DNA of 64,000 nt from Anaerolineae bacterium (GTDB lineage Bacteria; Chloroflexota; Anaerolineae; B4-G1; SLSP01): assembly GCA_049975525.1 (NCBI GenBank), contig JBNGCW010000003.1:31779-95778 (forward strand). The letters run 5' to 3'. Shown piece by piece: positions 18,582 through 52,688 of the stretch. A model generated the notes under the pieces. The model had not been told where the DNA came from and did not search any database. It was given only the letters and a program-made list of their open reading frames with translations. Each line of letters starts with the position of its first letter. Positions within the stretch are counted from its first letter, which is position 1. The position numbers were made by a program, and so were the translations under genes.

Positions 18582-19382
18582 ATGGAGCTGACAGGCTATC
18601 TTGATTTCTGGTTCAAGGATGTCCCTCTTGTGCAGCGGGTGGAAAGGTTCGTCGATCTGGGCATCCGTCGCCTCGACGTCTGGTGCTGGCGCGCCGCCCC
18701 TATGGCCGAGCTGGCCAGCGAGTGTAAGCGTTACGGTGCAATCCTCAACTCCACGTTTGACGAGGAGATGGGCTCGTTGGCCGATCCCGCCGATAACGAG
18801 CAGACCCTCCGTTCCTGGGGCGAGAGTCTGGAGATGGCGGAACGCTACGGCGTCGAGCATCTTTTCATCTTCTCCAACCAGGTGAACATCGTCGGCGGGC
18901 GGGAGTGGACCAAGCGGCTGTCCGCCAACTACACCGAGGCCGAGCAGTACGCCAATCTACTGGCGCAGACGGAGAAGATTATGCGCCTGGTGGAACAGAC
19001 CGAGGTCGAAGTCTGGGTGGAAGGGCTCAACGAGTTCCATATCCAGGGCGGCGTGCTGGTCCACGACCAGGCGCTGGCTGCCGACTGGGTGCGCCGCATC
19101 GACCATCCGCAGTTCCGCCTGGCTTTCGACTGCTATCATCAGCAGCGTGGGGCCGGCAATCTGATCTGGGGGCTGGAAGCGTACAACGGTCTCTATCCCA
19201 CCTTTCACATCGGTGACGTGCCGACGCGCCAGGAGCCGGGCACCGGAGAGATCAACTTCCCCAACCTGGTCAGGAAACTGCGTGAGCTGGGTTTTGACGG
19301 CTACGTGGGTATGGAGTTCTCGCCTTCGGATACAGAAGCCAACGCCCTGCAGCGCGTCAAGGATTTGTTCGGCCTCGATTGA
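18582..19382 (+). CDS. Hydroxypyruvate isomerase-like TIM-barrel isomerase/epimerase
   Basis: VEGLN, FDCYHQQ, HIGDVPTRQEPGTGEINF, GYVGMEF. Confidence 0.85.
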   Translation: MELTGYLDFWFKDVPLVQRVERFVDLGIRRLDVWCWRAAPMAELASECKRYGAILNSTFDEEMGSLADPADNEQTLRSWGESLEMAERYGVEHLFIFSNQVNIVGGREWTKRLSANYTEAEQYANLLAQTEKIMRLVEQTEVEVWVEGLNEFHIQGGVLVHDQALAADWVRRIDHPQFRLAFDCYHQQRGAGNLIWGLEAYNGLYPTFHIGDVPTRQEPGTGEINFPNLVRKLRELGFDGYVGMEFSPSDTEANALQRVKDLFGLD

Positions 19383-19487
19383 TTTGATAGTCTTGATTTT
19401 GCTTCTGGTCAGACCCGGCGTCCTTGGACGGCGGAGCACTTGTGCTGTTGACCCTCACAGTATCAACATAACTCACGAGGTCATTCT

Positions 19488-20273
19488 ATGAACATGAAAC
19501 GTTTTGAAGACCACGTCGTCATCATCACTGGAGCCGCCAGCGGCATTGGCAAGGCGTGTGCCCTGCGGTTTGCCCGGGAGGGTGCGAACGTTGCCTGCCT
19601 GGACGTCAGCGATGCCGCCCGTGAAGCGGTCGCCTCCGACTGCCGCGACGAAGGCGTCGAGGCGTTCAGCGCGCACTGCGACGTGACGTGCCCTGACGAG
19701 ATGGAGGCCGCCGTGCAGCGCACGCTGGAACGCTGGCGACGCATCGACGTCCTGATCGCCTCGGCGGGCGTCTACAGCGGCGCGCCGCTGCCGGAGGTCT
19801 CCTTGCAGCAGTGGCAACGCCTCATCGAGATCAACCTGACGGGCGTCTTTCTCGCCAACCGCGCTGTCGCACCGGTGCTGATGCAGCAGAAATCGGGCAG
19901 TATCATCAACCTCTCGTCCATGGCGGGCAAGACCAGCTTTCCTGCCTCGGCCGCGTACTCGGCCTCAAAGAGTGGCGTCATCGGGCTGACGCGCGCCGTC
20001 GCCATGGATCTGGCGCCCTACGGCGTCACCGTCAACGCTATCTGCCCGGGCAACACGCGGACGGAGATGATCCGGCGCGTGGCCGAGCGGGCCGGTGCCC
20101 AGGACGGGTTGACCGCCGAAGCCTGGTTGGAGATGCGCGCCGCCGATTGTCCCCTGGGACGGCTGGCGGAACCGTGGGAGATCGCCGGCGTCGCGGCGTT
20201 CCTGGCCTCCGAGGACGCGCGATACATCACCGGGCAGGCCATCGAGGTGGACGGCGGCATGGTGCTCTGCTAA
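19488..20273 (+). CDS. Short-chain dehydrogenase/reductase (NAD, polyol-DH-like)
   Basis: TGAASGIG, YSASK, VNAICPG, GQAIEVDGG. Confidence 0.9.
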   Translation: MNMKRFEDHVVIITGAASGIGKACALRFAREGANVACLDVSDAAREAVASDCRDEGVEAFSAHCDVTCPDEMEAAVQRTLERWRRIDVLIASAGVYSGAPLPEVSLQQWQRLIEINLTGVFLANRAVAPVLMQQKSGSIINLSSMAGKTSFPASAAYSASKSGVIGLTRAVAMDLAPYGVTVNAICPGNTRTEMIRRVAERAGAQDGLTAEAWLEMRAADCPLGRLAEPWEIAGVAAFLASEDARYITGQAIEVDGGMVLC

Positions 20274-20326
20274 GGGGCAACCCGGTTCAGAGACTGCTTG
20301 ACAGCCGCCGGCCCCGGTCCTCGTTG

Positions 20327-21349
20327 CTAGCGCTCCCAATCGGCGAAGGCGTCCACCACCGGCTCGATCTCATCCATCAGCGGGTAGAGGATGGGACAGG
20401 TGACGCCGGCGTCGACGTACTCACCGACTTTGGCCCGGCACTCCTCGCTGGTGCCCACGGCCATGATGTTGCGCACGATCTCGTCGGGGATGACCTCGCC
20501 GGCGCGGGCGTAGTCTTCCTCCGTCGCGGGCCAGCTCATGACGGACTGGACGCGCGCCAACAGCTCCTCGCTGGCGCCGCTGGCTTTCATGATGTGCGGC
20601 TCCGTGGCGAAGTAGTAGGCGGCCAATTTCTTGGCCTCGGCCATGGCTGCGTCCGGGTCCTCGTCGGAGAGCGAGCAGACGATGAGCTCGGGCCGATCCA
20701 CGTCATCCAACGTCTTGCCCGCTTTCTTAGCGCCTTTCTCCACCAGGGCCACGGCCTCGCGGATATAATCGACAGAGACGACGTAGTTGAGCACCACGCC
20801 GTCGCAGATCTCGCCCGCCAGCTGCAACATCTTAGGGCCGGTGGCGCCGATGTAGATGGGGATGTCGCGCGGTGACGTGTCGCCGAAGGCCACGTCGAGT
20901 TTCACGCGATCCAGGTGGACGAAATCGCCCTCGTAGGTGACCTCCTCCATGGTGAAGAGCTGGCGGATAGCTTCCACGTACTCGCGTATGGCGGTGAGCG
21001 AGCGGTGACGGTGTACGCCGACGCGGCTGGCGATGGGTTCCCACCAGGCGCCGAGGCCCAGCATGACGCGCCCACGTCCGTTCACCTTGCCGCCCAGCTC
21101 CCACATGGTGCTCCAGGACGCGGCGATGACGGCCGCATTGCGCGTCCAGATGGGCAGCACACCCGATCCGATGCGCAGCCGCTCCGTTGCTGTAAGGAAA
21201 GCGCTCATCATCACGATGCAATCGCGGGCCAGGCGTGTGTCGGCCTGCCAGATTTCGCTGAAGCCGCGCGCCTCGGCGTACTGCGCCATCTCCAGTTCAT
21301 ACCGCATGTCGTGCTTGTCCTGCATGTACAGTGCCATTCGTTGGGTCAT
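20327..21349 (-). CDS. LLM-class oxidoreductase, Mer-like, probably F420-dependent
   Basis: [42 protein letters not shown]; AAGGAG RBS before ATG 21349. Confidence 0.85.
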
Positions 21350-21371
21350 GGTTTCTCCTTGCAAAATGGGT

Positions 21372-21544: not shown

Positions 21545-22888
21545 TTACACGTACGCGTTCAAGTCGACGTCGGGGTAGCGGATGCGCTCGCCGTACTCCC
21601 GCCGCTCCGGCTTGTACGTCGCGTCGATGCCCACCTTGGTGTGTACGCCGCGCGCGTCCGCCGTGGGGTCCATCTCGTGGCCCTGGGCGCCGGGCACGGT
21701 GAAGGTGTCCCGGCTCCAATCGACGCGGTTGGTCAGCGCCCAGAACACGTCGGCGGGATCGTAGATGTCCACGTCCGCGTCCACCACGATGACTTGCTTG
21801 ATGTTGACGTGGGCCGTCATGGCCGCCAGGGCGACGTTCTTCGGCTCGCCAGGATGAGTTTTCTCCAGCTGCACAAGGGCGGAGAAGCCATTGCCGTGGG
21901 GCGGGATGTGCAGGTCGAGGACGCCTTTGCTGACGTGGCGCACGAAGCGCAGCAACAACGGCTCGCGGGGCAGCACGTTGCCCAGATAGACGTGCTCGGC
22001 GGCGCCCGGCACGATGGTCTGGTAGATGGGATGGTCGCGGAAGCAGAGGGCGGTCACGTGGAAGACCGGGCTCTCCCAGAGCTCGCCGTAGTAGCCGTGG
22101 AACTCGGCCAGCGGCCCCTCGGCGTGGCGTTTCTGCGGCGGCAGATAGCCTTCGATGACGATCTCGGCCTCGGCGGGCACGTCGACGTCCACGGTGACGC
22201 CGCGCGCCACGGGTACCCCCTCACCCCGGATGGCGCCGGCGATGCGCAGCTCGTCGTCCTCGTAGCGGCAGCCGGCGGCGATCATGATGGCCGGATCCAA
22301 TCCGATGGCGACGGCGATCTCCAGCGGCTCACCCTCCTCCTCTCGCACCTTGTAGAACTGCATCACGTGACGCCACGCGTTGACGTTGAAACCCAGCGTC
22401 CGCGGCCCCAGCAATTGCATGCGGTTGTAGGAGAGATTGCCGCGCCCGCTGAGGGGGTCTTTCGCTACCGTCACCCCGCCGGTGATAAAGGGGCCGCCGT
22501 CGTGTTGGCCGTGGATGGGGATCGGAAGTCGGGAAAGATCGACGTCGTCGCCCGTCAGCACGTTGGCTTTCCAGGCTGCCTCGGCGTCACGCCGGGGGGG
22601 GATGCCGTGGGTGGGCTCCAGCGCGCGGCCCATCACGTCCGTCACCTCTTCGGGACGACAGCCTAAGGCCAGCGCCGCCAGTGTCTGATGGGCCACCGCG
22701 CCCGCGAAAACGGGCCAGTCGCTGCTGCCGGGACGCTCGAAAAGCACCGCGCCCAGGTTGTGCCGGGCCACCGTCACCGCGACATTGGCCAGTTCGTGCT
22801 CCAAACTGACCGGCGTGGGTACGCGCACCAGCCGATCCTGAGCCTCCAAACGGACGAGAAATGAACGCAAATCGTGGATTCTATCCAT
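21545..22888 (-). CDS. UbiD family prFMN-dependent (de)carboxylase
   Basis: DLSRLP, DGGPFIT, NLSYNR, AEIVIEG, EGPLAEFHGYY, VDADVDI, GIDAT. Confidence 0.92.
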   Translation of the reverse strand: MDRIHDLRSFLVRLEAQDRLVRVPTPVSLEHELANVAVTVARHNLGAVLFERPGSSDWPVFAGAVAHQTLAALALGCRPEEVTDVMGRALEPTHGIPPRRDAEAAWKANVLTGDDVDLSRLPIPIHGQHDGGPFITGGVTVAKDPLSGRGNLSYNRMQLLGPRTLGFNVNAWRHVMQFYKVREEEGEPLEIAVAIGLDPAIMIAAGCRYEDDELRIAGAIRGEGVPVARGVTVDVDVPAEAEIVIEGYLPPQKRHAEGPLAEFHGYYGELWESPVFHVTALCFRDHPIYQTIVPGAAEHVYLGNVLPREPLLLRFVRHVSKGVLDLHIPPHGNGFSALVQLEKTHPGEPKNVALAAMTAHVNIKQVIVVDADVDIYDPADVFWALTNRVDWSRDTFTVPGAQGHEMDPTADARGVHTKVGIDATYKPERREYGERIRYPDVDLNAYV

Positions 22889-22977: not shown

Positions 22978-23063
22978 AGGATATAACGTTTAGGGACTGG
23001 TGTCAAGTTCTACTTCGCAGTTAGTAAAGTGTCACTTGACACCGGGCGAAAATTGAGTATCAT
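22978..23063. promoter_or_regulatory. Back-to-back divergent sigma70 promoters with an operator between the -35 boxes
   Basis: Minus strand TTGACA(23006-23001)-N17-TATCCT; plus strand TTGACA(23036)-N16-TATCAT; inverted repeat GGTGTCAAGT/ACTTGACACC. Confidence 0.75.
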
Positions 23064-23107: not shown

Positions 23108-23734
23108 ATGAAGGAGAGAGCTATGGCCTCGGATACTTCCATCGGCGGACGGCTCAAGAGACGACGACATCGGATGGGACTCAGCCTGCGGGAGCTGGCG
23201 CGTCGCACAGATCTCACCGCTTCTTTTCTCAGCCAGGTCGAACGCGGGCAAGCAAACGCCTCTTTGGACTCGCTGCGCCGCATCGCCGAAGCGCTCGACG
23301 TCTCCATGCTCTACTTTCTTTCGGAACCACAGGCCGATCGCACTCCAACAGCGACGATCGAGGACGCGCCTAGCCGCGAGAGGGAGATGCCTGGTTACGA
23401 TCCAGTGGTGCGCGCCGACGCCCGTCCTCAGCTGACCTTCCCCGATTCCGGTGTCTCCTACGAGCTCCTGGTCCCCTCCTTGAGCCGCAAGATGGAAGTC
23501 ATCCGTGGCGAGATCCCCCCCGGTATGAACAACGTCGTCCGCCGACTGCGCGAGCCTACCGAGGAGTTCATCTACGTGCTCTCCGGCCTGCTGCGCGTCG
23601 AACTGAAAAGCGGCACGCACCTTCTCCAGCCAGGCGACACGATCTACTTTCAGGGCATGGACCTCCTGGATCTGACCGCCGCGTCCGATGAGAATGCGGT
23701 CTGGATTTCGGTCATCACGCCGCCCGTATTCTAG
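23108..23734 (+). CDS. XRE-family HTH + cupin transcriptional regulator
   Basis: GLSLRELARRTDLTASFLSQVERG; cupin EEFIYVLSG..LQPGDTIYF. Confidence 0.92.
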   Translation: MKERAMASDTSIGGRLKRRRHRMGLSLRELARRTDLTASFLSQVERGQANASLDSLRRIAEALDVSMLYFLSEPQADRTPTATIEDAPSREREMPGYDPVVRADARPQLTFPDSGVSYELLVPSLSRKMEVIRGEIPPGMNNVVRRLREPTEEFIYVLSGLLRVELKSGTHLLQPGDTIYFQGMDLLDLTAASDENAVWISVITPPVF

Positions 23735-23754: not shown

Positions 23755-26055
23755 ATGCACACTCACATTGACTGGGATGCCATCACCGCGCCCTTCGACT
23801 ACAAAAAGATCGATGTCGCCTCACACTTCCTCCGCTGCTGGACCGGCTACGAGCGCACCGACCGGGGACTCGTCTTCGACTGCCGCCTGGCCGACCAGAC
23901 CCCGGTGCGATTCCGCGTCGACGTGGTCAAAGCCGCCGTGGTGCGTGTCCGCCTCTATCACCAGGAGCCGCAACCCACGCGCGCGGGCGAGATGCTGGTG
24001 CAAGCGGCGTGGGAGCCCCCCGCTTTCGAGATCGCAGCGCGTGAGGACGAAGTGACTTTGACCACCGACCGGCTGCGGCTGCGCTTCCGGCGGTTCCCGT
24101 GGCAGATGGAAGTTTTCGACCTCGAGGCTCACCCCGGCGCTCCACCCTTCTTCAGTCAGCGCATCGACGACCGCGCGTATGGACGCGCCTACGAAGTGCA
24201 TCCCACCGGCTTCGGCGCCACGGACGACGGACGCCAGGTCGTGCGCGAGACGGTGGCGGTCCAACCCGGCGAGGCCTTTTACGGCTTCGGTGAGAAGTTC
24301 ACGCCGTTGGAGAAGTGGGGGCAGCGCGTCATCTCCTGGGCCACCGACGTGGGGAACGTCAGCAGCCACCGCTCCTACAAGAATGTGCCCTTTTTCATGA
24401 GCACCGCCGGTTACGGCCTCTTTGTTCACACGTCCAACCCCGTGGTCTACGAGATGGGCACGGAATCCAGTATTTCCTACGCCTTTTACATCCTGGAGGG
24501 CCAGCTGGACTACTTTTTGATCCATGGACCTTCGTTCAAGCGCATCCTCAGCACCTACACCGAGCTGACAGGGCGTGCGCCGCTGCCGCCCAAGTGGTCC
24601 TTCGGCTTTTGGCTCTCGCGCTGCGGGTACAAGAGCCGCGCCGAGGTCGAGGGTGTCGTCAAAGAGATGCGCGAACGCGGCTTCCCCTGCGACGTCATCA
24701 GCCTGGATCCCTGGTGGATGGGTGACGCGCCCTGGTCGACCTACGAGTGGGATACCGACGCCTTCCCCAATCCGCCGGAGATGATGGCGGGATTGCGCGA
24801 CCAGCACGTGCGCACCTGCCTCTGGATCTCGCCCTACGTGACGGAAGGCTGCGATGCTTACGAGGAAGGCAAGGCGAAGGGCTACTTCGTCCAGGACGAA
24901 GCGGGCAACATCAGCCCCGTGCAGGAAGCTTTCGCGGGTGAGCATCTGGCGGCGGTGGACTTCACCAACCCCAAGGCCAGGGCCTGGTTCCAGAGTAAAC
25001 TGAAGCGGCTGCTGGAGATGGGTGCCGCCGTCTTCAAGTCCGACTTTGGCGAGCAAGCGCCGCGCGAGGCTCGCTACCACGACGGGCGCGACGGCATTGA
25101 GATGCACAACCTCTATCCGCTGCTCTATAACCAGGCCGTCTTCGAGACCACGGAGCGTCACTTCGGGCGTGGGCTGACCTGGGGACGCTCGGGCTACGCG
25201 GGCTCACAGCGTTATCCCGTCCAATGGGGCGGCGACAGCTACAGCAGCCTCGACCAGATGGCGTGTCAGGTGCGCGCCCTGCTCAGCTACGGCATCTCCG
25301 GCGTGCCCTTCTGCAGCCACGACGTTGGCGGCTTTGACTACGCTCCGGCGGCCTTTGACGCCGAGACTCAAGAGGACTTCCCCAAGGCCCCGGTCGTCTA
25401 CGCCCGTTGGTTGCAGTTCGGCGTCTTCTCCTCGCACCTGCGCGCTCACGGCAAGCAGCCCCGCGAGCCGTGGAGCTACGGCCCGGAGATCGCGGCCATC
25501 GCCCGCCGCTACCTGGCGCTGCGTTACCGGCTGCTGCCCTACATCTACACGCAGGCCGTCATATCGACGCGGACGGGCCTGCCCATGGTGCGCCCGCTGG
25601 TTATGGAGTATCAGGAGGATCCCAACGTCGAGCACGTCGATCTGGAGTATCTCTTCGGCGACGACTTTCTCGTGGCGCCCGTGGTCACCCGCGACGGGCG
25701 ACGGCGCGTTTATCTGCCGCAGGGCACCTGGTTCGACTACTGGACCAAGGAGTCGGTCGGCGGCGGGCGCTGGATTGAGGTCGAAGCGCCGCTGGAGACG
25801 CTGCCGCTCTGGGTGCGCGCCGGCGCCGTCATCCCCCTGGGGCCGGTGATGCAGTACGTCGATGAGAAGCCGCTCGATCCGCTGACGTTGGAGTTCTACG
25901 CGCCGGAAGACGCGGGCGAGCTGCTCATCTACGACGAGGATCGCCCGGAGATCACGGTGCGGTACCGACGCGACGGCGATGCGCTGCGCGTGGAGGTGGA
26001 GGACGCGCCGGGTGATGTGCAGGTCAGGGAGTATGGAGTAAGGATTAAGAAGTAG
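23755..26055 (+). CDS. GH31 alpha-glycosidase (YicI/alpha-xylosidase-like)
   Basis: YGFGEKF, YKNVPF, PPKWSFGFW, nucleophile motif FKSDFGE, WGGD, HDVGGF. Confidence 0.9.
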   Translation: MHTHIDWDAITAPFDYKKIDVASHFLRCWTGYERTDRGLVFDCRLADQTPVRFRVDVVKAAVVRVRLYHQEPQPTRAGEMLVQAAWEPPAFEIAAREDEVTLTTDRLRLRFRRFPWQMEVFDLEAHPGAPPFFSQRIDDRAYGRAYEVHPTGFGATDDGRQVVRETVAVQPGEAFYGFGEKFTPLEKWGQRVISWATDVGNVSSHRSYKNVPFFMSTAGYGLFVHTSNPVVYEMGTESSISYAFYILEGQLDYFLIHGPSFKRILSTYTELTGRAPLPPKWSFGFWLSRCGYKSRAEVEGVVKEMRERGFPCDVISLDPWWMGDAPWSTYEWDTDAFPNPPEMMAGLRDQHVRTCLWISPYVTEGCDAYEEGKAKGYFVQDEAGNISPVQEAFAGEHLAAVDFTNPKARAWFQSKLKRLLEMGAAVFKSDFGEQAPREARYHDGRDGIEMHNLYPLLYNQAVFETTERHFGRGLTWGRSGYAGSQRYPVQWGGDSYSSLDQMACQVRALLSYGISGVPFCSHDVGGFDYAPAAFDAETQEDFPKAPVVYARWLQFGVFSSHLRAHGKQPREPWSYGPEIAAIARRYLALRYRLLPYIYTQAVISTRTGLPMVRPLVMEYQEDPNVEHVDLEYLFGDDFLVAPVVTRDGRRRVYLPQGTWFDYWTKESVGGGRWIEVEAPLETLPLWVRAGAVIPLGPVMQYVDEKPLDPLTLEFYAPEDAGELLIYDEDRPEITVRYRRDGDALRVEVEDAPGDVQVREYGVRIKK

Positions 26056-27452: not shown

Positions 27453-27508
27453 TTGACTTATGATAACTCGACTATCCGACCACCAGACTCATCGACTAAA
27501 GGACTAAT
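27453..27508 (+). repeat. Degenerate 8-bp GACT(A)nnn array
   Basis: gacttat gataactc gactatcc gaccacca gactcatc gactaaag gactaa, before the GH38 start. Confidence 0.6.
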
Positions 27509-27509
27509 C

Positions 27510-31656: not shown

Positions 31657-31717
31657 AGCCATTGGGGTGCTCTCCACGAAGTTGAAAACTTGTGGGGAGC
31701 GCCATCTTTCACTCGCA

Positions 31718-31860
31718 CTTAAATTACGGTATTAGAGCGTAGCCAGGTGCGACGCACCTTCGAATGCTTGCACATAGCCATTTCATGCACGCTGGGATGG
31801 GGTTTTAGCCAGCATGATCGGGCCATCGCAGGTGCGTTGCACATTATACCGTAATTTCAA
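31718..31860. mobile_element. Family-A MITE (143 bp) with a perfect 7-bp TSD
   Basis: CTTAAATTACGGTAT...ATACCGTAATTTCAA flanked by ACTCGCA (31711-31717 and 31861-31867). Confidence 0.9.
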
Positions 31861-31941
31861 ACTCGCAGAACGTGGACATGTTTTCTTATCTGAAGATGGC
31901 GTCGTTATGGCATGTTTGCGTCACGTAAGGAGAGTTGAATC

Positions 31942-32805: not shown

Positions 32806-32815
32806 GGAGGCGATT

Positions 32816-36796: not shown

Positions 36797-36819
36797 AATA
36801 CTGAAAAGGTGAAACCGTT

Positions 36820-37863: not shown

Positions 37864-37908
37864 AGAGACGGAACACACAATGCGATACAACATACAACAA
37901 GGATAACC

Positions 37909-39796: not shown

Positions 39797-39812
39797 AGTC
39801 AGGATGTGTCCG

Positions 39813-39852
39813 TGATGCGTGAGAGCCCTGATACACAACTCGCGCATCACGG
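39813..39852 (+). other. Intercistronic stem-loop
   Basis: CCGTGATGCGTGAG/CTCGCGCATCACGG. Confidence 0.55.
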
Positions 39853-39917
39853 CGCTTCTGTGCAGCCATGTCTGATCAAATGTACATGGTAAATAGAGCG
39901 GTATATGGAAAGTATTT

Positions 39918-45002: not shown

Positions 45003-45440
45003 ATGCTCAGTCAAGATGAACTCCGGCAGATCCTGCAACACTCCCGCACCATCGCTGTGTACGGTATGTCAAGAGATGTTCACAAAGCAGCGCACCGCGT
45101 ACCCGCTGTCCTTGCCGATCTGGGATACAACATCATCCCTATCAATCCCTACGCGGACGAAATCATGGGCAACGTTGCGTATCCTACCCTCCTCGACGTG
45201 CCGGAGCCTATCGATATCGTGGACGTCTTTCGACCGTCGGAGGACGCCCTGCGCGTTGTGCAGGAGGCACTGACGCGGCGCGAGGCGCGCGGTGACGTGC
45301 AGCTTATCTGGCTCCAATTGGGTATCGTTAACGAGCGTGCCTGTCAGCTGGCTGAGAGGGCGGGGGTCTCCTTTGTCCAAAACCGCTGCATGGCCATCGA
45401 GGTGCCCAGGCTGCTGCCCGGCGGCCTGAACACAACTTGA
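45003..45440 (+). CDS. CoA-binding protein (YccU-like)
   Basis: IAVYGMS, IPINP, IDIVDVFR, WLQLGI, NRC. Confidence 0.9.
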   Translation: MLSQDELRQILQHSRTIAVYGMSRDVHKAAHRVPAVLADLGYNIIPINPYADEIMGNVAYPTLLDVPEPIDIVDVFRPSEDALRVVQEALTRREARGDVQLIWLQLGIVNERACQLAERAGVSFVQNRCMAIEVPRLLPGGLNTT

Positions 45441-45495: not shown

Positions 45496-46554
45496 ATGAA
45501 AACCAAGAGCTTACGTGGACGTGATTTTCTGGCCGAGACCGATTTCTCTCAGGAAGAGATCAAGACGGTGCTGGCTGTCGCGGAGCGGCTGAAGGCCGAC
45601 CGCGCCATGGGCGTCTACCATGACGACGTGTTGCGCGCCAAGACGCTCTTCATGCTCTTCTACAACCAGTCGCTGCGCACGCGCAACTCCTTCGAGGCCG
45701 GCATGACGCAGTTGGGCGGCCACGCGCACTTCCTCGACCCGAACAAGATCTACACTCCGGCCCTGGAAGGCCAGGAGGTCGCCTACAGCACCGAGCGCGT
45801 CTCCGACGTGGCCCGTGTCCTCTCCCGCATGGGCGACGCCATCGCCATCCGCTGCTACGGCGACCCCGTCGAGTGGGAGTACGGGGCAGCCCATGCGCTG
45901 CTGCGGGAGTTCGCCAAGTGGTCCGATATCCCTGTGCTCAACATGGAGGACGACATTTATCACCCCTTCCAGGGCTTGGCGGACATGCTGACCGTCAAGG
46001 AAAACTTCGGTGGCTTTGAAGGTATCAACTTCACCATGTCCTGGGCCTACTCGCCCAGCGTCCACAAACCGCGTGCCGTGCCGCAGTCGGCCATCCTCTA
46101 CGCCACCATGCTCGGTATGAACGTCACCCTGGCCCATCCGCCGGAAATGGCGCTGGACCCCGAGATCATCGCGCAGTGCGAGGCCTACGCCGAGGCGACC
46201 GGCGGCTCTTTCCGCATCACGCACGACTTCGCCGAGGGCGTCAAGGGCGCGCACGCCGTCTATCCCAAGGCCTGGTGCCCCACGACTATCTTCCAGCCGC
46301 CTATCGGCGAGTACGACATGGACAAGTCCCAGGAGATCTTCGACCGCTACAAGGATTGGAAGATGACCAAGGAGCTGATGGAAACCGCGGCCAGGGATGC
46401 TATCTACATGCACTGCCTGCCCGCCGACCGCGCGCACGAGGTCAGCAACTACGTCATGGACAAGACCGAAGGCCCCGGTTGGCGCTCCGCCATCTTCGAT
46501 CAGGCCGAAAATCGGCTCCATGTGCAGAAGGCCGTTATGAGCTTAGTCATGTAG
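45496..46554 (+). CDS. Carbamoyltransferase, YgeW-like (knotted) subfamily
   Basis: SLRTRNSF, HPFQGLAD, SWAYSPSVHKPRAVPQS (resembles the YgeW TWAYSPSYGKP loop), HCLPAD, QAENRLH. Confidence 0.82.
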   Translation: MKTKSLRGRDFLAETDFSQEEIKTVLAVAERLKADRAMGVYHDDVLRAKTLFMLFYNQSLRTRNSFEAGMTQLGGHAHFLDPNKIYTPALEGQEVAYSTERVSDVARVLSRMGDAIAIRCYGDPVEWEYGAAHALLREFAKWSDIPVLNMEDDIYHPFQGLADMLTVKENFGGFEGINFTMSWAYSPSVHKPRAVPQSAILYATMLGMNVTLAHPPEMALDPEIIAQCEAYAEATGGSFRITHDFAEGVKGAHAVYPKAWCPTTIFQPPIGEYDMDKSQEIFDRYKDWKMTKELMETAARDAIYMHCLPADRAHEVSNYVMDKTEGPGWRSAIFDQAENRLHVQKAVMSLVM

Positions 46555-46731
46555 TCGGTTAGTCACTTAGTCAGGTAGTCAAGTAGTCGTTTAGTCGGAT
46601 GGTCGCTACTACCAGACTATCAGACTACCTGACTATTGGACTATCAGACTACCGGACTACCAGACTACACGACTACCGGACTACACGACTACCAGACCAC
46701 AGGACTACTAGACTATGAGACTAAAAGACTC
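46544..46731. repeat. Foldback array of 8-bp units: 8 x TAGTCnnn then 16 x GACTAnnn
   Basis: Strict 8-bp period; overlaps the stop of the upstream gene and the first codons of the downstream gene. Confidence 0.92.
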
Positions 46732-47446
46732 TGTCGTGCTTATCACTGGCGGCGCGGTGCGCGTAGGACGGGCGGTGGGCCTCTACCTGGCCGAACGCGG
46801 CGCGCACATCGCCTTCAGCTACTATCTGGAGGACGAACCCTGGCAAGCGACGCTGGACGAGATCAAGGCCCACGGCGTGGACGCCATCGCCGTCCAGGCC
46901 GCCGTCGAAGACGCTGATTCTGTCCGGCATCTAGTGGACGTCACCCTGGAGCACTTTGGGCGCATCGACGTACTGCTCAACAACGCCTCGGTCTGGCTGA
47001 AATCGCCCCTGCTGGAACTGAGCGAGGAAGAGTGGGACCGCGCGTTGAACGTCAACCTCAAAGGGCCGTTCCTCTGCAGCAAAGTCGTCGCGCCCATCAT
47101 GTTGGCGCAGGAACGCGGCCTGATCCTCAATATCACCGACATCTCCGCCTTCCAGGTGTGGGAGGGCTACGCCCATCACGCCGCCAGCAAAGCGGGCCTG
47201 GTCTCACTGACCAAATCGCTGGCCGTGGAACTGGCGCCGTACGTGCGCGTCAACGCCATCGCGCCGGGCACCGTGCTCCTGCCGGAGGATTGTCCTCCCG
47301 AAAAGGAGGTCTGGGCCAAAGAAAAGTCGCTGCTGGGGCGCATTGGCTGCCCGGAGGACGTGGCGCGCACCGTCGCTTTCCTCATGGAATCGGATTTCAC
47401 CACCGGCAGCGTCTATTTTGTGGATGGGGGACGCGCGCTGGTATGA
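46715..47446 (+). CDS. SDR, pteridine reductase (FolM/PTR1)-like
   Basis: TGGAVRVG, NNAS, ILNITD, RVNAIAPG; HAASK in place of YxxxK. Confidence 0.8.
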   Translation: MRLKDSVVLITGGAVRVGRAVGLYLAERGAHIAFSYYLEDEPWQATLDEIKAHGVDAIAVQAAVEDADSVRHLVDVTLEHFGRIDVLLNNASVWLKSPLLELSEEEWDRALNVNLKGPFLCSKVVAPIMLAQERGLILNITDISAFQVWEGYAHHAASKAGLVSLTKSLAVELAPYVRVNAIAPGTVLLPEDCPPEKEVWAKEKSLLGRIGCPEDVARTVAFLMESDFTTGSVYFVDGGRALV

Positions 47447-48723
47447 GCAGCATCCTCATCCGCGACGGCGCGGTGCTGACCGAGGCGGGCTGGATCCAGC
47501 CGGGCTACGTGGAGATCGCCGGAGCGACCATCGCAGCGCTGGGTGAAGGCTCGCCGCCGGACGCGGTCGTCGCGCGGGCGGAGACGGTTATCAACGCGCG
47601 GCATCGCGCCGTGCTGCCCGGGTTGATCAACGCGCACACGCACCTCAGCCAGACCTTGATGCGCGGTCTGGCCGGCGGTCGCCCGCTGCTGCCCTGGCTC
47701 CGCGAACTGATCTGGCCGCTACAGCGCGCTCTCACGCCTGAGGACCTGCGTCTCGCGGCGTTGCTGGGTCTGGTGGAGAATCTGCGCTGTGGCGCGACCC
47801 ACGTCATCGACCACCACAAGGTCGCCACGTCGCCCGCGCATACCGACGCCGTCTGCGAGGCAGCGGAAGAAGTTGGCCTGCGCCTGACGCTGGCGCGCGC
47901 CTGGTCCGATCAGGGCAAGAACGCCGAAGCGCCCGACGTCCTCCTGGCGGATCTGGAGCGGCTCTTCGAACAGTGGGCCGGACACGACCGCCTGCGCGCC
48001 GCCAACGGTCCCCTGGCGCTCTGGCGCTGCTCTGCACAGACGCTGCAGCGTGCCCACAGGCTGGCCCGTCGTTACGGCAGCGTCACCCACGCCCATGTGG
48101 CCGAGACCGAGGACGAGGTGCGCATGTCGCTGGACGAACACGATCTGCGTCCCGTCGCCTGGCTGAACGAGATCGGCGTGCTGGATGAAGCAACGCAGAT
48201 CGTCCACGCCGTCTGGGTGGACGCGGACGAGATCGCACTGCTGGCAGAAAGCGGCGCGACGGTCGTGCACTGTCCCGTGAGCAACGCCGTGCTGGGATCG
48301 GGGATTGCGCCGGTCGCGGCGCTACAGGCGCACGGCGTGCGACTCCGCCTGGGCACCGATGGACCCGCCAGCAACGACACGCAAGACCTCTTCGAGACGC
48401 TGAAGGCCGCCCTCGGCTTTGCGCGCGCGACGACGCGCGACGCGACGGTGCTCCCCCCACAAGCGGCGCTCCGGCTCGCCACCGGCGGACGGACGCTGGC
48501 GCCGGGCGTCGTCGCCGACGTCATCGTCGTCAACCTCGATCACGCCCGCGCCATGCCCGTGCACGACGTGGACTCGGCGTTGGCGCTGAGCACCCACGGC
48601 AGCGACGTGGAGACCGTCATCGTCGGCGGAGACCTGCTGATGCACGAGGGGCACGTCCTCGTGGTGGATGAAGTCGCCCTGCTGGCGGAGTGCCGGCAAG
48701 CGATCAGGCGACTGCAAACCTAA
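47443..48723 (+). CDS. Amidohydrolase, MtaD/deaminase-like
   Basis: PGLINAHTH, HAHVAET, HCPVSN..LGSG, LGTDGPASN; ATGA overlap with the SDR gene. Confidence 0.88.
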   Translation: MSSILIRDGAVLTEAGWIQPGYVEIAGATIAALGEGSPPDAVVARAETVINARHRAVLPGLINAHTHLSQTLMRGLAGGRPLLPWLRELIWPLQRALTPEDLRLAALLGLVENLRCGATHVIDHHKVATSPAHTDAVCEAAEEVGLRLTLARAWSDQGKNAEAPDVLLADLERLFEQWAGHDRLRAANGPLALWRCSAQTLQRAHRLARRYGSVTHAHVAETEDEVRMSLDEHDLRPVAWLNEIGVLDEATQIVHAVWVDADEIALLAESGATVVHCPVSNAVLGSGIAPVAALQAHGVRLRLGTDGPASNDTQDLFETLKAALGFARATTRDATVLPPQAALRLATGGRTLAPGVVADVIVVNLDHARAMPVHDVDSALALSTHGSDVETVIVGGDLLMHEGHVLVVDEVALLAECRQAIRRLQT

Positions 48724-48899: not shown

Positions 48900-49970
48900 A
48901 TGAATTCACGCGAGCGCGTACGGCGCTTAATCAACCGCGAGCCGGCGGATCGGATCGCCATCTTCGACTCATTCTGGACTCAGACCCTGGTGGATTTCCG
49001 CGCGCAGGGTATGCCGGCGGACGTCTGGCCCGAGGATTACTTCGACTTTGACATCGGCATGGTCTGGTTCGAGCAGTCCTTTCTGCTGCCTCAAGAGGTC
49101 GTCGAAGCAAACGAAGACTACCGTATCGTCCGCGACGACTGGGGCACGCTCAACAAGGAGTTCCGCGAGGCGCAGACGACGCCGGGCCTGCTGGGCTTCG
49201 CCATCGAGACGCGGGCGCAGTGGGAGGAGTACCAGCCGCTGCTGGCCTACGATCCGGCGATGCGCATCGAGTGGGAGCCTTTTGAGGCGCGCTACCGGCA
49301 CTTCCGCGAGCGGGACCGCTACGTCGTGCTCTCCATGCTCGATCCCTTCGAATGCACGTGGCATAAGGTCGGCCCGGAAAAGCAGCTGATGCTGACGATC
49401 CAGGACCCGGCGTGGCTGCAGGAGATGTACGCCGCCGACGTGCAGCTGATCAGCGACGCCTGGCGCGACCTGCAGAGGCGCGGTATCCAGCCGGACGCAC
49501 TCTGGCTCTATGGCGACATCGCCTACAACAAGGGCATGCTCTTCTCGCCCCGCCATTACCGTGAGCTTCTGCTGCCCTTCCACCGCCGGCTTTGCGAACT
49601 GGCCCACGCCGACGGCGCCCAGGTGATCTACCATAGCGACGGCGATCTCACCAGGGCCGTGCCGCTGCTCATCGAGGCGGGCGTGGATTGCATCCAGCCC
49701 ATGGAGGTCAAGGCGGGCATGGACGTCTTGGCCCTCAAGGAAGCCTACGGCGATCAGCTGGCCTTCATGGGCAACATCGACGCGCGGCTCTTCCAAGATA
49801 ACGACCGCGAGGGGTTGAAGGCTGAGATCCAGCGGAAGGTTCCGGCGGCTATGGCGGGCGGGGGCTACATCTACCACAGCGACCACTCCATCCCGCCGGG
49901 CGCCACGCTGGAGATCTACGAATACGCGCTCTCGTTGGTGCGGGACATCGGACGGTACACAAAGCTATAG
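48900..49970 (+). CDS. Uroporphyrinogen decarboxylase-fold protein (MtaA/CmuA superfamily)
   Basis: MNSRERV..EPADR, GDIAYNKGMLFSP, HSDG, GNID, GGGYI..DHSIP. Confidence 0.82.
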   Translation: MNSRERVRRLINREPADRIAIFDSFWTQTLVDFRAQGMPADVWPEDYFDFDIGMVWFEQSFLLPQEVVEANEDYRIVRDDWGTLNKEFREAQTTPGLLGFAIETRAQWEEYQPLLAYDPAMRIEWEPFEARYRHFRERDRYVVLSMLDPFECTWHKVGPEKQLMLTIQDPAWLQEMYAADVQLISDAWRDLQRRGIQPDALWLYGDIAYNKGMLFSPRHYRELLLPFHRRLCELAHADGAQVIYHSDGDLTRAVPLLIEAGVDCIQPMEVKAGMDVLALKEAYGDQLAFMGNIDARLFQDNDREGLKAEIQRKVPAAMAGGGYIYHSDHSIPPGATLEIYEYALSLVRDIGRYTKL

Positions 49971-49979
49971 GAGAGAGTC

Positions 49980-51446
49980 ATGCGCGTTTTGTACATCGAT
50001 ATCGACACGCTGCGTCCCGACCACCTCGGCTGTTACGGCTATCACCGTGAGACCAGCCCCAACATCGACGCTTTGGCTGATGCAGGCGTGCGGTTCGACA
50101 ACTGCTACAACACCGACGCGCCCTGTCTGCCCTCGCGCACAGCGCTGTGGAGTGGGCGCTTTGGCTTTCACACCGGCGTCGTCAACCACGGCGGCACAGC
50201 AGCCGAGCCGTTTATCGAAGGCCCGGACCGTGGTTTCCGTGACACCTTCGACGCGAGCAGCTGGATGCGCGCGCTGCGCGACGTCGGCCTGCGCACCGTC
50301 ACCGTCAGCCCCTTTGGCGAGCGCCACGCGGCCTGGCACTGGTACGCGGGCTATTCGGAGGTCTACAACCCCGGCAAAGGCGGCATGGAACTGGCCGACG
50401 ACGTGACGCCGCTGGCGTTGGATTGGATCGAGCGGAACGCCGCCAGCGACGACTGGTTTCTGCACGTGAACTACTGGGACCCGCACACACCCTATCGCAC
50501 ACTGGCGGACTTCGGCGATCCCTTTGCTGAGGAGCCGCTGCCCGCCTGGCTGACTGAGGAAGTGCGTCAGCGCAGCTGGGAGGGGTACGGACCGCACAGC
50601 CCACAGGAGCCGCATGGCTGGGGCCGCGAGACGTTCTATCAGGACTATCCGCGCATACCAGCCCAACTGGATTCCATGGCGGCGGTGAAGCAGTGGATCG
50701 ACGGCTACGACACCGGCATCCGCTACGCCGACGCGCACGTGGGACGGTTGCTCAATGCGCTGGCTGATGTGGGCGTCCTTGATGAGACCATCGTCATGCT
50801 CAGCGCCGACCACGGTGAGAACCAGGGCGAGCTTAACATCTGGGGTGACCATCAGACCGCCGACGTGCTCACCTGCCGCGTGCCGCTCATCGTGCGCTGG
50901 CCCGGGCTGACGGACGCACCCCGCGTGGATCGCGCGCTGCACTACCACTTCGACTGGGCCGCGACGCTCGTCGAGCTGCTCGGCGGTGAGATCCCCGGCA
51001 ACTGGGACGCGGCACCGTTCACGGAGACCTTTCGGCGCGGCGAGGTGGCCTCAGGCCGCCCCTACCTGGTCATCAGCCAGAACGCCTGGTCCTGCCAGCG
51101 CGGCGTGCGCTTCGACGACTATCTCTGCATCCGCACCTACCACGACGGTTACAAGCAACTGGCGCCGGTGATGCTCTTCGATCTGACGGAAGATCCCCAC
51201 GAGCAGCACAACCTCGCCGCCGAGCGCCCGGACGTGGTCAACCGCGCCATGGGCATGCTGGCGGACTGGCATCACGAGATGGTGACGACGGCGGGCCACG
51301 GCGTCGATCCCATGCAGACGGTGCTGCACGAGGGCGGCCCGTATCACGTCCGAGGCGAGTTATCCGCTTACCTGAGGCGCCTGCGTGCCACCGGTCGTGC
51401 CCACCACGCCAAGATGCTCGCTCACCTTCATCCGCACGAACCCTAA
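49980..51446 (+). CDS. Cys-type (FGly) sulfatase
   Basis: [31 protein letters not shown]. Confidence 0.92.
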
Positions 51447-51515
51447 CTCATGGCTCCCACAATCATCCCGCACCACGCACTTGACTCATGAAGCGCAGTG
51501 GGCACTAGACCGACC

Positions 51516-52688
51516 ATGAATGCTCCGACCGCCTTCCACATCATGACCAAGCCTATCGGACCGACGTGCAACCTCGACTGCGCGTACTGTTACTATCTTT
51601 CTAAGACCCGGCTCTACCCGGATACGACGGACTTTCGCATGTCCGACGCCGTGCTCGAATCCTTTACGCGCCAGTATATCCAGGCGCAGCGTGTCCCGGC
51701 GGTGACCTTTGGCTGGCAGGGCGGCGAGCCGACGCTGCTGGAGCTCGATTTTTTCGAGCGCGCCCTGGCGTATCAGGCCAACTATCGGCGCCCCGGCATG
51801 CGCGTCATCAACACCCTGCAGACCAACGGGACGTTACTTGATGATGTGTGGGGTTGCTTCTTCAAGCGGCACACCTTTCTGGTCGGCCTGAGCCTCGACG
51901 GGCCCCGCGATCTCCACAACGCCTACCGGCGCACCAGGAACGGCGCGCCGACCTTCGCGCAGGTTATGGACGGCTTGGACGTGCTCAAGCGGTACGACGT
52001 GGCGTTCAACGTACTGGCGACCGTCCATGCAGCCAATGCGCCGCACCCTCTGGAGACGTACCGCTTTCTGCGCGACGAGGTCGGCGCCAAATACATGCAG
52101 TTCATCCCCATTGTGCAGCAACGAGCGGACGGCGGCCTCACGGAGCGCTCGGTCACGGCGCAGCAGTACGGCGCGTTTCTAACCGCGATCTTCGACGAGT
52201 GGGCACAACGGGATCTGGGCACCGTCTCCGTCCAGATCTTCGACGTGGCGATCTCCGTAGCATTGGGGCGCCCGCCGGGCCTCTGCGTCTTCTCGGAGAC
52301 CTGTGGCACGGCCCTCGCGCTGGAGCACAACGGCGATCTCTATGCCTGCGATCACGTCGTCGACGCCCGGCACCGCCTGGGCAACATCACCAGGACGTCA
52401 CTGGTGGAGCTGGTCGGTTCGGCGAAGCAGCGCGCCTTCGGAAAGGCGAAAGCCGATCTGCCGGACATCTGCCAGACCTGCGACGTGCGCTATCTCTGTC
52501 ACGGCGGCTGTCCGAAAAACCGGTTGCCCGCCTCACCTGGCGAACCGCCGCTTAACGTGCTCTGTGCGGGCTACAAAGCGTTTTTCCGGCACATCGAACG
52601 GCCCGTCAACATCATCGCGCGGCAGATGCGCCAACGGCGGTCGCTCCCTGCGATGCGTCGGCGGATGCAACGCTATTTCACGTCATAA
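51516..52688 (+). CDS. Anaerobic sulfatase-maturating radical SAM/SPASM enzyme
   Basis: KP..CNLDCAYCYY, WQGGEP, CVFSETC, YACDH, CxxCxxxxxCHGGCPKN. Confidence 0.92.
   Translation: MNAPTAFHIMTKPIGPTCNLDCAYCYYLSKTRLYPDTTDFRMSDAVLESFTRQYIQAQRVPAVTFGWQGGEPTLLELDFFERALAYQANYRRPGMRVINTLQTNGTLLDDVWGCFFKRHTFLVGLSLDGPRDLHNAYRRTRNGAPTFAQVMDGLDVLKRYDVAFNVLATVHAANAPHPLETYRFLRDEVGAKYMQFIPIVQQRADGGLTERSVTAQQYGAFLTAIFDEWAQRDLGTVSVQIFDVAISVALGRPPGLCVFSETCGTALALEHNGDLYACDHVVDARHRLGNITRTSLVELVGSAKQRAFGKAKADLPDICQTCDVRYLCHGGCPKNRLPASPGEPPLNVLCAGYKAFFRHIERPVNIIARQMRQRRSLPAMRRRMQRYFTS

Follow-up and report, generated by a model that had tools for sequence, protein, structure and literature searches.

The window analyzed here, a 64,000-nucleotide stretch corresponding to C3:31779-95778 of the 4.1-Mb, 94.42%-complete genome of an oil-field member of the Anaerolineales (C numbers denote its contigs), contains between positions 18582 and 52688 a large gene cluster that probably constitutes a regulon, controlled by a helix-turn-helix (HTH)-cupin protein, for dismantling a bicyclic oxo-N-heterocycle, of purine or pteridine type, by reduction and without oxygen, and that would represent a paralogue of the reductive uric-acid pathway. 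The observations behind this reading are gene content, conserved gene order, a shared operator and paralogy to the amidohydrolase SsnA, while the catalytic steps are assigned from family membership and gene context. An earlier note on this DNA had proposed a single regulator-centred cluster for N-heterocycle catabolism, a proposal that is supported in this part; the sub-modules are co-conserved in other genomes and an operator links at least three promoters. It had recognized the gene combination from no described pathway, but the nucleus of the cluster matches the reductive uric-acid/2,8-dioxopurine pathway described in 2025. We agree with its judgment that the substrate cannot be read from the sequence; this is probably a purine- or pterin-like compound, and of the candidate classes listed in the note, purines and pterins remain and pyrimidines are the least likely.

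The reductive uric-acid pathway, known from E. coli (its ygeW-xdhD region) and from clusters of C. difficile and C. sporogenes, is set out in the accessible part of Li et al. 2025 (Life Metab, PMC12507026) as follows: XdhD makes 2,8-dioxopurine; YgfK or UacX, the latter being the reductase of the C. difficile cluster, carries out the reduction; HyuA opens the hydantoin; YgeW (with YqeA) or UacY, plus YgeY, removes the ureido groups; and YgeX yields pyruvate. The pathway is also treated in the accessible part of Liu et al. 2025 (bioRxiv 10.1101/2025.04.24.650524).

The genes of 18582-52688 were scanned against Pfam and NCBIfam, scores being compared with the family cut-offs, and the gene classes that the earlier note had listed were all confirmed. 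From the regulator gene (23108) to the gene of the anaerobic sulfatase maturase (anSME; 52688), 25 genes follow one another on a single strand with gaps of -4 to 285 bp, and between 23.1 and 52.7 kb promoter-like and terminator-like sites are not commoner than in shuffled sequence. Gene g07 (26067-27449, + strand) encodes a D-hydantoinase/dihydropyrimidinase (DHPase) that passes the HyuA-type test (TIGR02033/IPR011778; 502.6 bits versus a cut-off of 393.25), aligns with E. coli HyuA at 40.3% identity across 454 residues and has no better-scoring rival in the genome as a HyuA match; a second, ordinary dihydropyrimidinase paralogue is encoded on C22. Gene g13 (34585-35913, +) encodes an amidohydrolase whose best family is SsnA and which, like its orthologues in loci L041 and L058, falls under the SsnA cut-offs (NF005540, 263.9 versus 444; TIGR03314, 247 versus 455.5). 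It is 27.7% identical to E. coli SsnA, and a quick tree places its clade (20 rows) as sister to E. coli SsnA and the genome's own true SsnA, with long branches. We propose that g13 opens a six-membered ring. The gene cluster is widespread, with at least 120 protein clusters at least 64% identical to g13, and the public names of g13 relatives are only "amidohydrolase", "cytosine/adenosine deaminase-related" and "MTA/SAH deaminase".

The candidate for the reductive step is g03 (20327-21364, -), an F420-type luciferase-like (LLM) protein (PF00296, 220.5 bits) of Mer-like character, whose best NCBIfam and PDB matches are the F420-dependent methylene-tetrahydromethanopterin reductase, below cut-off. 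Neither YgfK nor UacX (PF01180) is encoded in the window, where the LLM protein stands instead. Among 48 related loci, orthologues of g03 that are 75-85% identical occur in 15 and a UacX/PydA-like reductase occurs in 15, never in the same locus. This mutual exclusion suggests that the LLM protein is a functional replacement, and we propose g03 as the ring-dearomatising reductase. The carbamoyltransferase g22 (45496-46554, +; PF02729, PF00185) was called YgeW-like in the earlier note. It is 33% identical to E. coli YgeW and fails the YgeW test (TIGR03316, 159.1 versus a cut-off of 500), and it comes closer to N-acetylornithine carbamoyltransferase (NF003384, 274.9 bits versus a cut-off of 288; 159-167 bits for YgeW); its orthologues in relatives are 75-84% identical. 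A carbamate kinase (397.8 bits versus a cut-off of 358.25) is encoded on C37, beside another carbamoyltransferase. Gene g24 encodes an amidohydrolase of the amino/chlorohydrolase type (PF01979), a probable deaminase whose best NCBIfam match is 5'-deoxyadenosine deaminase (300 bits versus a cut-off of 522), whose orthologues are 58-61% identical and which forms a clade separate from g13. The open reading frame is long (47032-48723, +), but the gene itself most likely begins close to 47443, the point from which the family is matched. No XdhD/YgfM molybdenum (Mo) enzyme is encoded in 18582-52688, the best XdhD match lying on C2 at 41% identity. YgeX was not found in the genome, its best match being 27% over part of threonine synthase, and for YgeY an M20 gene upstream of the cluster (9093-10298) scores 143.4 versus a cut-off of 321.

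To obtain the related loci, aligned DHPase orthologues were used to scan a set in which each prokaryote species is represented by one genome, and 10-kb flanks were taken. Nearly all of these DHPase-anchored loci come from metagenome-assembled genomes of the Anaerolineae/Anaerolineales. Presence was counted at 45% identity or more, and the counts are lower bounds because 25 of the 48 loci are cut by contig ends, leaving 23 with full 10-kb flanks. The SsnA-like gene is found together with the DHPase gene in 32 of the 48 (20 of the 23 with full flanks), the HTH-cupin regulator in 18, UbiD in 17, the LLM reductase in 15, GH31 in 14, E1 alpha in 10, the TIM-barrel isomerase in 9 and the carbamoyltransferase in 8 (17 at any identity). 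The energy-coupling factor (ECF) importer and the ATP-binding cassette (ABC) transporter genes each occur in 5-6, E2 in 5, the Pterin_bind protein in 4, the nucleoside hydrolase in 2 and GH38 in none.

The order of these genes is conserved as well. In a compact arrangement, which we call type A, LLM and UbiD genes diverge from regulator, GH31, DHPase, SsnA-like, E1 alpha and E1 beta genes, which are followed by those for ECF S/AA'/T, TIM isomerase, Pterin_bind protein, E2, carbamoyltransferase and a short-chain dehydrogenase/reductase (SDR2). About 20 genes stand in the same order in five or more further Anaerolineae genomes, their proteins being 50-85% identical. When five compact type A clusters were extended beyond 10 kb, carbamoyltransferase and SDR2 genes were found after E2 in four of the five, and a 2Fe-2S plus Mo-hydroxylase pair followed SDR2, likewise in four. 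An orthologue of g24 was present in all five and an orthologue of the UroD-like g25 (58-63%), after that of g24, in three. An aldehyde:ferredoxin oxidoreductase and a UbiX-like flavoprotein were each found in three of the five, both families being confirmed by Pfam in G044 and G041. Five relatives of the same family share the order LLM-UbiD, divergent from HTH-cupin, GH31, DHPase, (UroD-like), solute-binding protein, permeases, (nucleoside hydrolase), SsnA-like and E1 alpha-beta. Loci of a second type, B, carry a UacX/PydA-like reductase with UbiD beside it, two YgeY-family hydrolases that pass the cut-off, a Mo hydroxylase with FAD subunit, and SsnA-like, HyuA-like and carbamoyltransferase genes. 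Compared with type A, the window holds a rearranged copy, in which the TIM isomerase and first SDR genes have moved upstream of the LLM gene, the Mo hydroxylase has gone from the locus, and GH38, the ABC system, the nucleoside hydrolase, a membrane protein and a CoA-binding protein have been inserted. The earlier note had named as a finding against it that the sub-modules would never be conserved together and would be independently regulated; they are co-conserved in other genomes, and the objection fails for that reason. A 359-residue protein of no Pfam family (L014:817-1896; also L080, L082 and L083) recurs in or near the clusters of relatives at 45-51% identity; it adjoins a corrinoid protein in G015 and has no homologue in the genome of the window.

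The paralogy to the uric-acid pathway became apparent from the true SsnA proteins of these bacteria, which are encoded in 34 of 251 sampled Chloroflexota genomes. In the genome studied here a protein on C16 passes both SsnA cut-offs (484.6 and 504.2). The true-SsnA flanks that were fetched contain XDH/SsnA/CofD/LLM'/YgfM/XdhD clusters, in which LLM' is 44-49% identical to g03; these are evidently the Chloroflexota variant mentioned by Li et al. Such clusters, which lack DHPase/HyuA, carbamoyltransferase, UbiD, GH31, E1/E2 and ECF genes, lie elsewhere in four of the five type A genomes (three of their SsnA proteins pass the cut-off and one, at 440 bits, is just under it), and true SsnA is found in three of the five type B genomes. 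Because true-SsnA clusters lie elsewhere in the same genomes, the cluster of the window would be a paralogue of the reductive uric-acid pathway and not that pathway itself. We considered whether the canonical pathway is encoded elsewhere in the genome of the window, and rejected this: true SsnA (C16), an XdhD-like protein (C2) and carbamoyltransferase with carbamate kinase (C37) are scattered, and there is no purine context around the C16 gene.

The regulator g05 (23108-23734, +; HTH_3, PF01381; cupin, PF07883) is a single-copy protein in this genome. Alignment of 13 orthologous UbiD/regulator intergenic regions yielded the operator motif, the regions sharing a conserved block that ends in GTAAAGTnnnACTTGACA and is followed by a -10 box. 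At one mismatch or fewer, the palindrome GT[AC]AAGT-N3-ACTT[GT]AC occurs at three sites in the whole 4.1-Mb genome: at window position 18493 upstream of g01 (GTAAAGTATCACTTGAC, a perfect match to the motif), at 23024 in the divergent promoter between the UbiD and regulator genes, and at C33:29724, upstream of an XdhC'-XdhA'-SDR2' operon on another contig. Each has a weaker partner site alongside. All three belong to the cluster, including the relocated Mo-hydroxylase operon, which is 56% and 64% identical to the in-cluster Mo hydroxylase of relatives. The pair upstream of g01 (18452..18533, +; sites at 18452, with two mismatches, and 18493) overlaps the g01-g02 promoter, a promoter-like site at 18505-18533 that scores 10 of 12. 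The tandem operators at 23002 and 23024 accompany divergent promoters (22978..23063) that score 11 of 12 on the + strand and 10 of 12 on the - strand. The four best promoter-like sites in 18-37 kb coincide with operator-associated promoters, a weak operator-like site with three mismatches lies at 46578, before g23, and in 18 or more related loci the motif precedes the gene of the regulator. We infer that the HTH-cupin protein binds this motif. A repeat-tool search for palindromes in the regulator promoter gave no match, and a first, 14-mer operator pattern had 4 matches versus 2.24 expected, which is not above chance. Two leftward promoters, at 18154-18182 and 22978-23006 (both -), are nearly identical (AACTTGACACCA, spacer, CGTTATATCCT); the second drives the UbiD-LLM pair and the first faces an FAD-binding oxidoreductase gene (16750-17934). 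We rejected the latter as a member of the cluster: it has the look-alike promoter, yet it is not conserved near the cluster in relatives.

The clearest addition to the nucleus is g04 (21545-22888, -), a UbiD-family decarboxylase of the prenylated FMN (prFMN) type, which contains PF20695, PF01977 and PF20696 and passes TIGR00148 (320.7 bits versus a cut-off of 244.85). Its nearest structures are HmfF (6H6V, 273.9 bits) and then indole-3-carboxylate decarboxylase (7P9Q), both of which use heteroaromatic acids as substrates, and it is 39-41% identical to the UbiD proteins of hmf-type clusters on Cupriavidus and Dinoroseobacter plasmids; the plasmid searches led to furan clusters of the hmf kind and to a UbiD/UbiX set for ubiquinone, and the xanthine-8-carboxylate decarboxylase was not among their results. 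UbiD stands beside a reductase in both cluster types. Taken with the aldehyde oxidoreductase, UbiX and Mo hydroxylase of relatives, it suggests a module that converts an aldehyde to an acid and then decarboxylates it on a heterocycle. The GH31 alpha-glycosidase g06 (23755-26055, +; PF01055, 330.6 bits) resembles YicI, its PDB matches being 5F7C and YicI, and scores 595 against the alpha-xylosidase family NF007940, just below the cut-off of 606; the 14 loci that carry it have it in second place within the regulator operon. Thiamine pyrophosphate (TPP)-dependent E1 alpha and beta subunits (g14/g15, 36820-38889, +; PF00676; PF02779 and PF02780) and a lipoyl E2 acyltransferase (g20, 43684-44988, +; PF00364, PF02817, PF00198) were described in the earlier note as acetoin-dehydrogenase-like; they score best as the pyruvate-dehydrogenase type (NF006667, 378.4 versus a cut-off of 321). 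This is the third E1 set of the genome, besides those on C25 and C2. The E1 orthologues are 70-83% identical in 9-10 of the 48 loci, E2 orthologues are also present in the extensions, and in the conserved order the ECF, TIM and Pterin_bind genes lie between E1 alpha-beta and E2.

The ECF importer (g16-g18, 39014-42517, +) consists of an S component (weak PF07155/PF12822), a fused AA' protein (TIGR04520, TIGR04521) and a T component (PF02361); an atlas places the S component among ECF-ribofla_trS-like clusters, a generic placement only, and the orthologues sit between the E1 beta and TIM genes. The xylose-isomerase-like TIM-barrel protein g01 (18582-19382, +; PF01261, 81.8 bits), similar to hydroxypyruvate or 2-oxo-tetronate isomerases, has NCBIfam matches far under their cut-offs and orthologues 52-77% identical within compact clusters; those of its neighbour, the SDR oxidoreductase g02 (19488-20273, +; PF13561/PF00106), are 48-69% identical and adjoin the TIM gene in related loci. 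The second SDR, g23 (46715-47446, +), is pteridine-reductase-like, with NF006598 as its best match (205.7 bits, under the cut-off of 288), and its orthologues (62-70%) come after the carbamoyltransferase in relatives. The Pterin_bind (MeTr-like) protein g19 (42755-43606, +; PF00809, 63.7 bits) scores 170.3 versus a cut-off of 259 for NF005719, and its orthologues, 58-66% identical, lie ahead of E2. The earlier note had counted a UroD-fold protein among the parts. One is present, g25 (48900-49970, +; PF01208, 52.5 bits; no PDB sequence match), but it and its orthologues have H-S-D and H where MtaA-like paralogues on C13 have H-x-C and C. We take H-x-C...C to be the Zn-binding motif of the MtaA-type UroD-fold subunit, and a methyl-transfer role for g25 is doubtful because it lacks the Cys residues of these paralogues. 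A corrinoid methyl-transfer reading of the Pterin_bind and UroD-like proteins was likewise weakened, both because these residues are lacking and because no corrinoid protein is encoded in cis. The genome's one close corrinoid protein is encoded on C13 with two MtaA-like genes (17000-20500, L021), beside a TauE-like exporter; G015 carries inside its cluster a corrinoid protein with which this B12-binding protein shares 66% identity. In the literature searched, the additions to the nucleus (UbiD, GH31, ECF, E1/E2 of pyruvate-dehydrogenase type, TIM, SDRs, Pterin_bind and UroD-like proteins), together with the UbiX, aldehyde:ferredoxin oxidoreductase and Mo hydroxylase of relatives, are undescribed.

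These parts can be arranged into a pathway. A substrate would be taken up by the ECF importer, with the sugar-type ABC system perhaps also taking part in this lineage, and an alpha-linked sugar would be removed by GH31, to which GH38 and the nucleoside hydrolase would be local additions. The SDRs and the TIM isomerase, together with the TPP-dependent E1/E2, would trim and oxidise a carbon substituent, joined in relatives by aldehyde:ferredoxin oxidoreductase and a two-subunit Mo hydroxylase, which here would be supplied from C33 under the same operator. UbiD would decarboxylate the resulting heteroaryl carboxylate and g24 would deaminate; the F420-type g03 would then dearomatise the ring, g13 would open the six-membered ring and g07 the second ring. 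Finally, g22 would phosphorolyse the ureido group and pass carbamoyl phosphate to the carbamate kinase encoded elsewhere.

A more specific version, which we regard as possible but put forward only tentatively, is a hitherto undescribed anaerobic pathway for pterin glycosides, pterins of the biopterin or neopterin type, or folate or methanopterin breakdown products from necromass. GH31 would remove the sugar; the SDRs, TIM isomerase and E1/E2 would cleave the side chain at C6; the pterin aldehyde so formed would be oxidised, by aldehyde oxidoreductase or Mo hydroxylase, to the 6-carboxylate, which UbiD would remove; g24 would deaminate pterin to lumazine; the Mer-like F420 reductase and the pair of SsnA-like and HyuA-like enzymes would dismantle the rings; and carbamoyl phosphate would be conserved as ATP. 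This scheme would give roles to GH31, the SDRs, TIM, E1/E2, the deaminase, the Mer-like reductase and the Pterin_bind protein, and, if true, it would be the first pteridine catabolic route dependent on both prFMN and F420.

Several observations weigh against the broader assignment to reductive purine or pteridine breakdown under one regulator. Conservation is patchy, the extended E1/TIM set being present in 7 of the 23 full-flank loci, and the related genomes in the conservation counts are non-independent samples. No PF02441 protein (UbiX or CoaC type) was found in this 94.42%-complete genome, and all 14 of 14 control genomes match that family, so that in this bacterium UbiD may have no source of its cofactor. 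Neither the 48 loci nor nine extensions yielded YgeX, YgfK or carbamate kinase, and the fate of the carbon skeleton is for this reason a guess. The raw operator count of the genome (6) is not above that of shuffled genomes (0, 0, 2, 4 and 6), and the argument from the operator therefore rests on where the sites are located; no operator was found ahead of the gaps inside the gene row, at the genes for the binding protein, E1, ECF, the Pterin_bind protein and the UroD-like protein. Finally, because true-SsnA clusters lack HyuA and carbamoyltransferase, the true-SsnA locus and the g13 locus may cooperate on one purine substrate.

The last point leads to the explanation that the cluster is the Chloroflexota form of the reductive uric-acid/2,8-dioxopurine pathway, with the true-SsnA locus supplying the upstream steps on the same substrate. 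Here g24 would deaminate purines, the F420 LLM protein would reduce, g13 and g07 would open the rings and g22 would decarbamoylate, the C3 product passing via pyruvate to acetyl-CoA through E1/E2, whose resemblance to pyruvate dehydrogenase would suit such an end product. The accessible part of Li et al. 2025 (PMC12507026) states that Chloroflexota SsnA neighbourhoods carry an F420 'luciferase-family' reductase replacing YgfK/UacX, type B clusters hold the complete set, from a Mo hydroxylase with its FAD subunit through UacX-like, SsnA-like, HyuA-like and carbamoyltransferase genes to two YgeY hydrolases, and the true-SsnA loci are without HyuA and carbamoyltransferase. On the other hand, a decarboxylase is not required by the known route (the accessible parts of both pathway papers contain 'UbiD' 0 times), and UbiD stands beside the reductase in both cluster types; g13 fails the SsnA cut-offs in a genome that has a bona fide SsnA and no detected YgeX; and GH31, ECF, TIM, the SDRs, Pterin_bind, the UroD-like protein and the aldehyde oxidoreductase would be left without a role. 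We consider this explanation unlikely, though far from negligible.

The involvement of a single pathway of any kind could be questioned if unrelated operons for sugar, pyrimidine or hydantoin, 2-oxoacid dehydrogenase, vitamin ECF and sulfatase functions lay head to tail. Gaps of 121-285 bp could hold internal promoters, a weak promoter-like site precedes the ECF S gene, in the window the operator was detected at just two positions and, as a weak site, at a third, and GH38, the nucleoside hydrolase, the CoA_binding protein and sulfatase/anSME are not conserved with the rest. Such a patchwork is nevertheless very unlikely in view of the recurrent order of about 20 genes, in which E1 alpha-beta and E2 are kept apart by the ECF, TIM and Pterin_bind genes, and of the operator that links g01-g02, the main operon and the relocated operon on another contig. 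The least likely of the explanations considered is a monocyclic ureide or amidine substrate, either orotate/uracil degraded by a reductive pyrimidine route, in which UbiD would make uracil from carboxy-uracil and the LLM protein would replace dihydropyrimidine dehydrogenase, or a compound of the hydantoin or creatinine type. It would account for the passing of the dihydropyrimidinase equivalog cut-off by g07, for the PreA/PydA-like nature of the alternative reductase in type B and for the sarcosine-oxidase-like flavoproteins carried by the G015 cluster. However, 32 of the 48 loci combine two distinct cyclic amidohydrolases (g07 and g13), which fits two rings, the nearest family of g13 opens the purine ring, the Mo hydroxylase is a conserved member, and the ordinary dihydropyrimidinase is a separate paralogue on C22. 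We accordingly favour a bicyclic purine- or pteridine-type substrate handled by a paralogue of the uric-acid route.

Some genes of the region appear to be local acquisitions or mere neighbours, and here the earlier note included too much. GH38 (g08, 27453-30230, +; alpha-mannosidase-like, with four GH38 Pfam domains), which it had counted as a part, lies inside the cluster in none of the 48 loci. In the nearest relative, G002, the DHPase gene is directly followed by that of the binding protein, and in two of the five extended clusters a GH38 homologue (45-50%) lies 10-13 kb away on the opposite strand; g08 is best viewed as a lineage-specific insertion. The IU-type nucleoside hydrolase g12 (33654-34535, +; PF01156, 191.3 bits), also listed as a part, has its two counterparts in the same genus. 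The CUT1-type ABC uptake system proposed in the note is present as a sugar-type solute-binding protein and two permeases (g09-g11, 30310-33652, +; PF13416/PF01547, PF00528), with no ABC ATPase gene in the window cluster; it is always within the operon in close relatives, and its conservation does not extend beyond them. The CoA_binding_2 protein g21 (45003-45440, +; PF13380) appears not to be conserved, since in relatives the carbamoyltransferase gene comes directly after E2 with no g21 between, one weak match occurring elsewhere. The desulfation step of the note rested on a sulfatase (g26, 49980-51446, +; PF00884, 123 bits), only 9 bp from g25, and anSME (g27, 51498-52688, +; TIGR03942, 448.9 bits versus a cut-off of 349.45). 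This pair is conserved in G002, G007 and G008 independently of the cluster, is not preceded by g25 in G002 and G008 and is absent from all five extended clusters; its genes are neighbours and not members.

An apparent 900-bp gap at 35914-36819 contains an additional gene, g13b (35946-36644, +), for a membrane protein that is 55% identical to a G015 protein next to ECF S; the G015 homologue has a weak CDP-OH_P_transf match and the window copy no Pfam match. The spacer between g13b and E1 alpha (36657-36760) showed, in both sequencing runs examined, a depth spike of about 5-fold, contig breaks and a one-base insertion variant, which suggest that a short element, either repeated or variable between strains, marks a rearrangement junction. 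Near-identical DNA is present in oil-field and crude-oil metagenome runs, with at least 94% of sampled words found in six runs from two studies (runs with a small word share were left out, and some of the six may be the genome's own source). The contigs of an RNA-labelled metatranscriptome run span the whole stretch at a depth nearly as flat as that of a DNA run, and DNA may be present in it.

Upstream of the cluster lie genes for a TRZ/ATZ-type amidohydrolase (6609-7928), an IU-nucleoside hydrolase (8031-8972) and the M20 hydrolase mentioned above, which is only 26% identical to E. coli YgeY; this module (6609-10298) looks like a separate nucleoside deaminase/hydrolase set. Farther upstream is a response-regulator/GAF/adenylate-cyclase protein (3601-5100). 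Just downstream of the cluster are a nitroreductase-family gene (52716-53447, -) and cofD (54130-55161, -). In other Anaerolineae cofD lies between true SsnA and the LLM paralogue, and these positions suggest that F420 biosynthesis genes travel with these reductases. The downstream part of the window (55999-63710) encodes a phosphonate-type ABC transporter, a CitMHS/TrkA-C transporter and V-type ATPase subunits. Paralogous modules are found elsewhere in the genome: an ECF-S paralogue (48%) is encoded beside a second XdhA/XdhC/XdhB-like set and a nitroreductase (C11:67852-73373, L089), and a binding protein, two permeases, a g24 paralogue (46%), an FGGY kinase and a TIM-barrel gene lie together at C1:170680-175671 (L090), a module that recurs in four type A genomes.

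Anaerolineae are abundant in digesters, sediments and oil reservoirs, and the substrate range known for them from experiments is small. The cluster would couple two unusual cofactor chemistries, in which prFMN serves a decarboxylase and F420 a ring reductase, to the ring-opening enzymes known from the uric-acid pathway, which was worked out in 2025. Solving its function would show purine- or pterin-type nitrogen recycling without oxygen and assign a role to a large family annotated only as "amidohydrolase" or "MTA/SAH deaminase". The predicted operator and the ligand-sensing regulator provide a direct experimental handle on the substrate.

Among known systems, the anaerobic sulfatase system is represented by g26 and g27, a sulfatase with its anSME maturase, the latter scoring above its family cut-off, and the corrinoid methyltransferase system, with its MtaA-type, MeTr and corrinoid proteins, differs from the window in having the corrinoid protein. 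The HmfF/HmfG 2,5-furandicarboxylate system contains the nearest characterised UbiD and passes from a heteroaryl aldehyde through the acid to decarboxylation; furoyl-CoA genes surround it there, in contrast to the ureide-ring hydrolases of the window. The clostridial 'xanthinase' pathway attributed to Tong et al. in 2023 is said to open the purine ring hydrolytically and to include a prFMN-dependent decarboxylase, and by analogy it would be a precedent for UbiD in anaerobic purine breakdown. As cited in the accessible part of PMC12507026, the xanthinase pathway, which is found in Clostridia and Bacilli, proceeds without a reductive step. The literature searched contained no gene assignments for the classical clostridial purine intermediates. 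Cluster I for pterin and lumazine in Cupriavidus sp. LA-1, as described in the accessible part of Doi et al. 2025 (Commun Biol, PMC12391406), combines a Mo hydroxylase, a UbiD/UbiX xanthine-8-carboxylate decarboxylase and an amidohydrolase-type pterin deaminase. It offers a precedent, being similar in uniting a Mo hydroxylase, a UbiD acting on a heterocyclic carboxylate and such a deaminase, although in that account it is aerobic, feeds xanthine to oxidative catabolism and has no LLM, SsnA-like or HyuA-like protein; it uses an amidohydrolase-2 isomerase (DHLI), and general Pfam scans of the window gave no match to the amidohydrolase-2 family.

The Chloroflexota SsnA-CofD-LLM-XdhD clusters likewise pair an F420-type LLM protein with an SsnA-type amidohydrolase and have cofD close by; they hold true SsnA, XDH and XdhD/YgfM, whereas the locus of the window is separate, larger and apparently paralogous. 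From the reductive uric-acid pathway the window differs in that g13 does not reach the SsnA cut-offs or g22 that for YgeW, an LLM protein of the F420 type stands as reductase, no YgeX, YgfK or in-cluster carbamate kinase was found, true SsnA lies elsewhere in the same genomes, and UbiD, GH31, ECF, E1/E2, TIM, SDRs, Pterin_bind and UroD-like proteins are added. The two nevertheless share the predicted sequence of reducing a ring, opening a six-membered ring with an SsnA-type enzyme, opening a hydantoin with a HyuA-type enzyme and removing a ureido group by a carbamoyltransferase; both are associated with a Mo hydroxylase, and the type B relatives of the window carry the UacX-like and YgeY-family genes of the known pathway.

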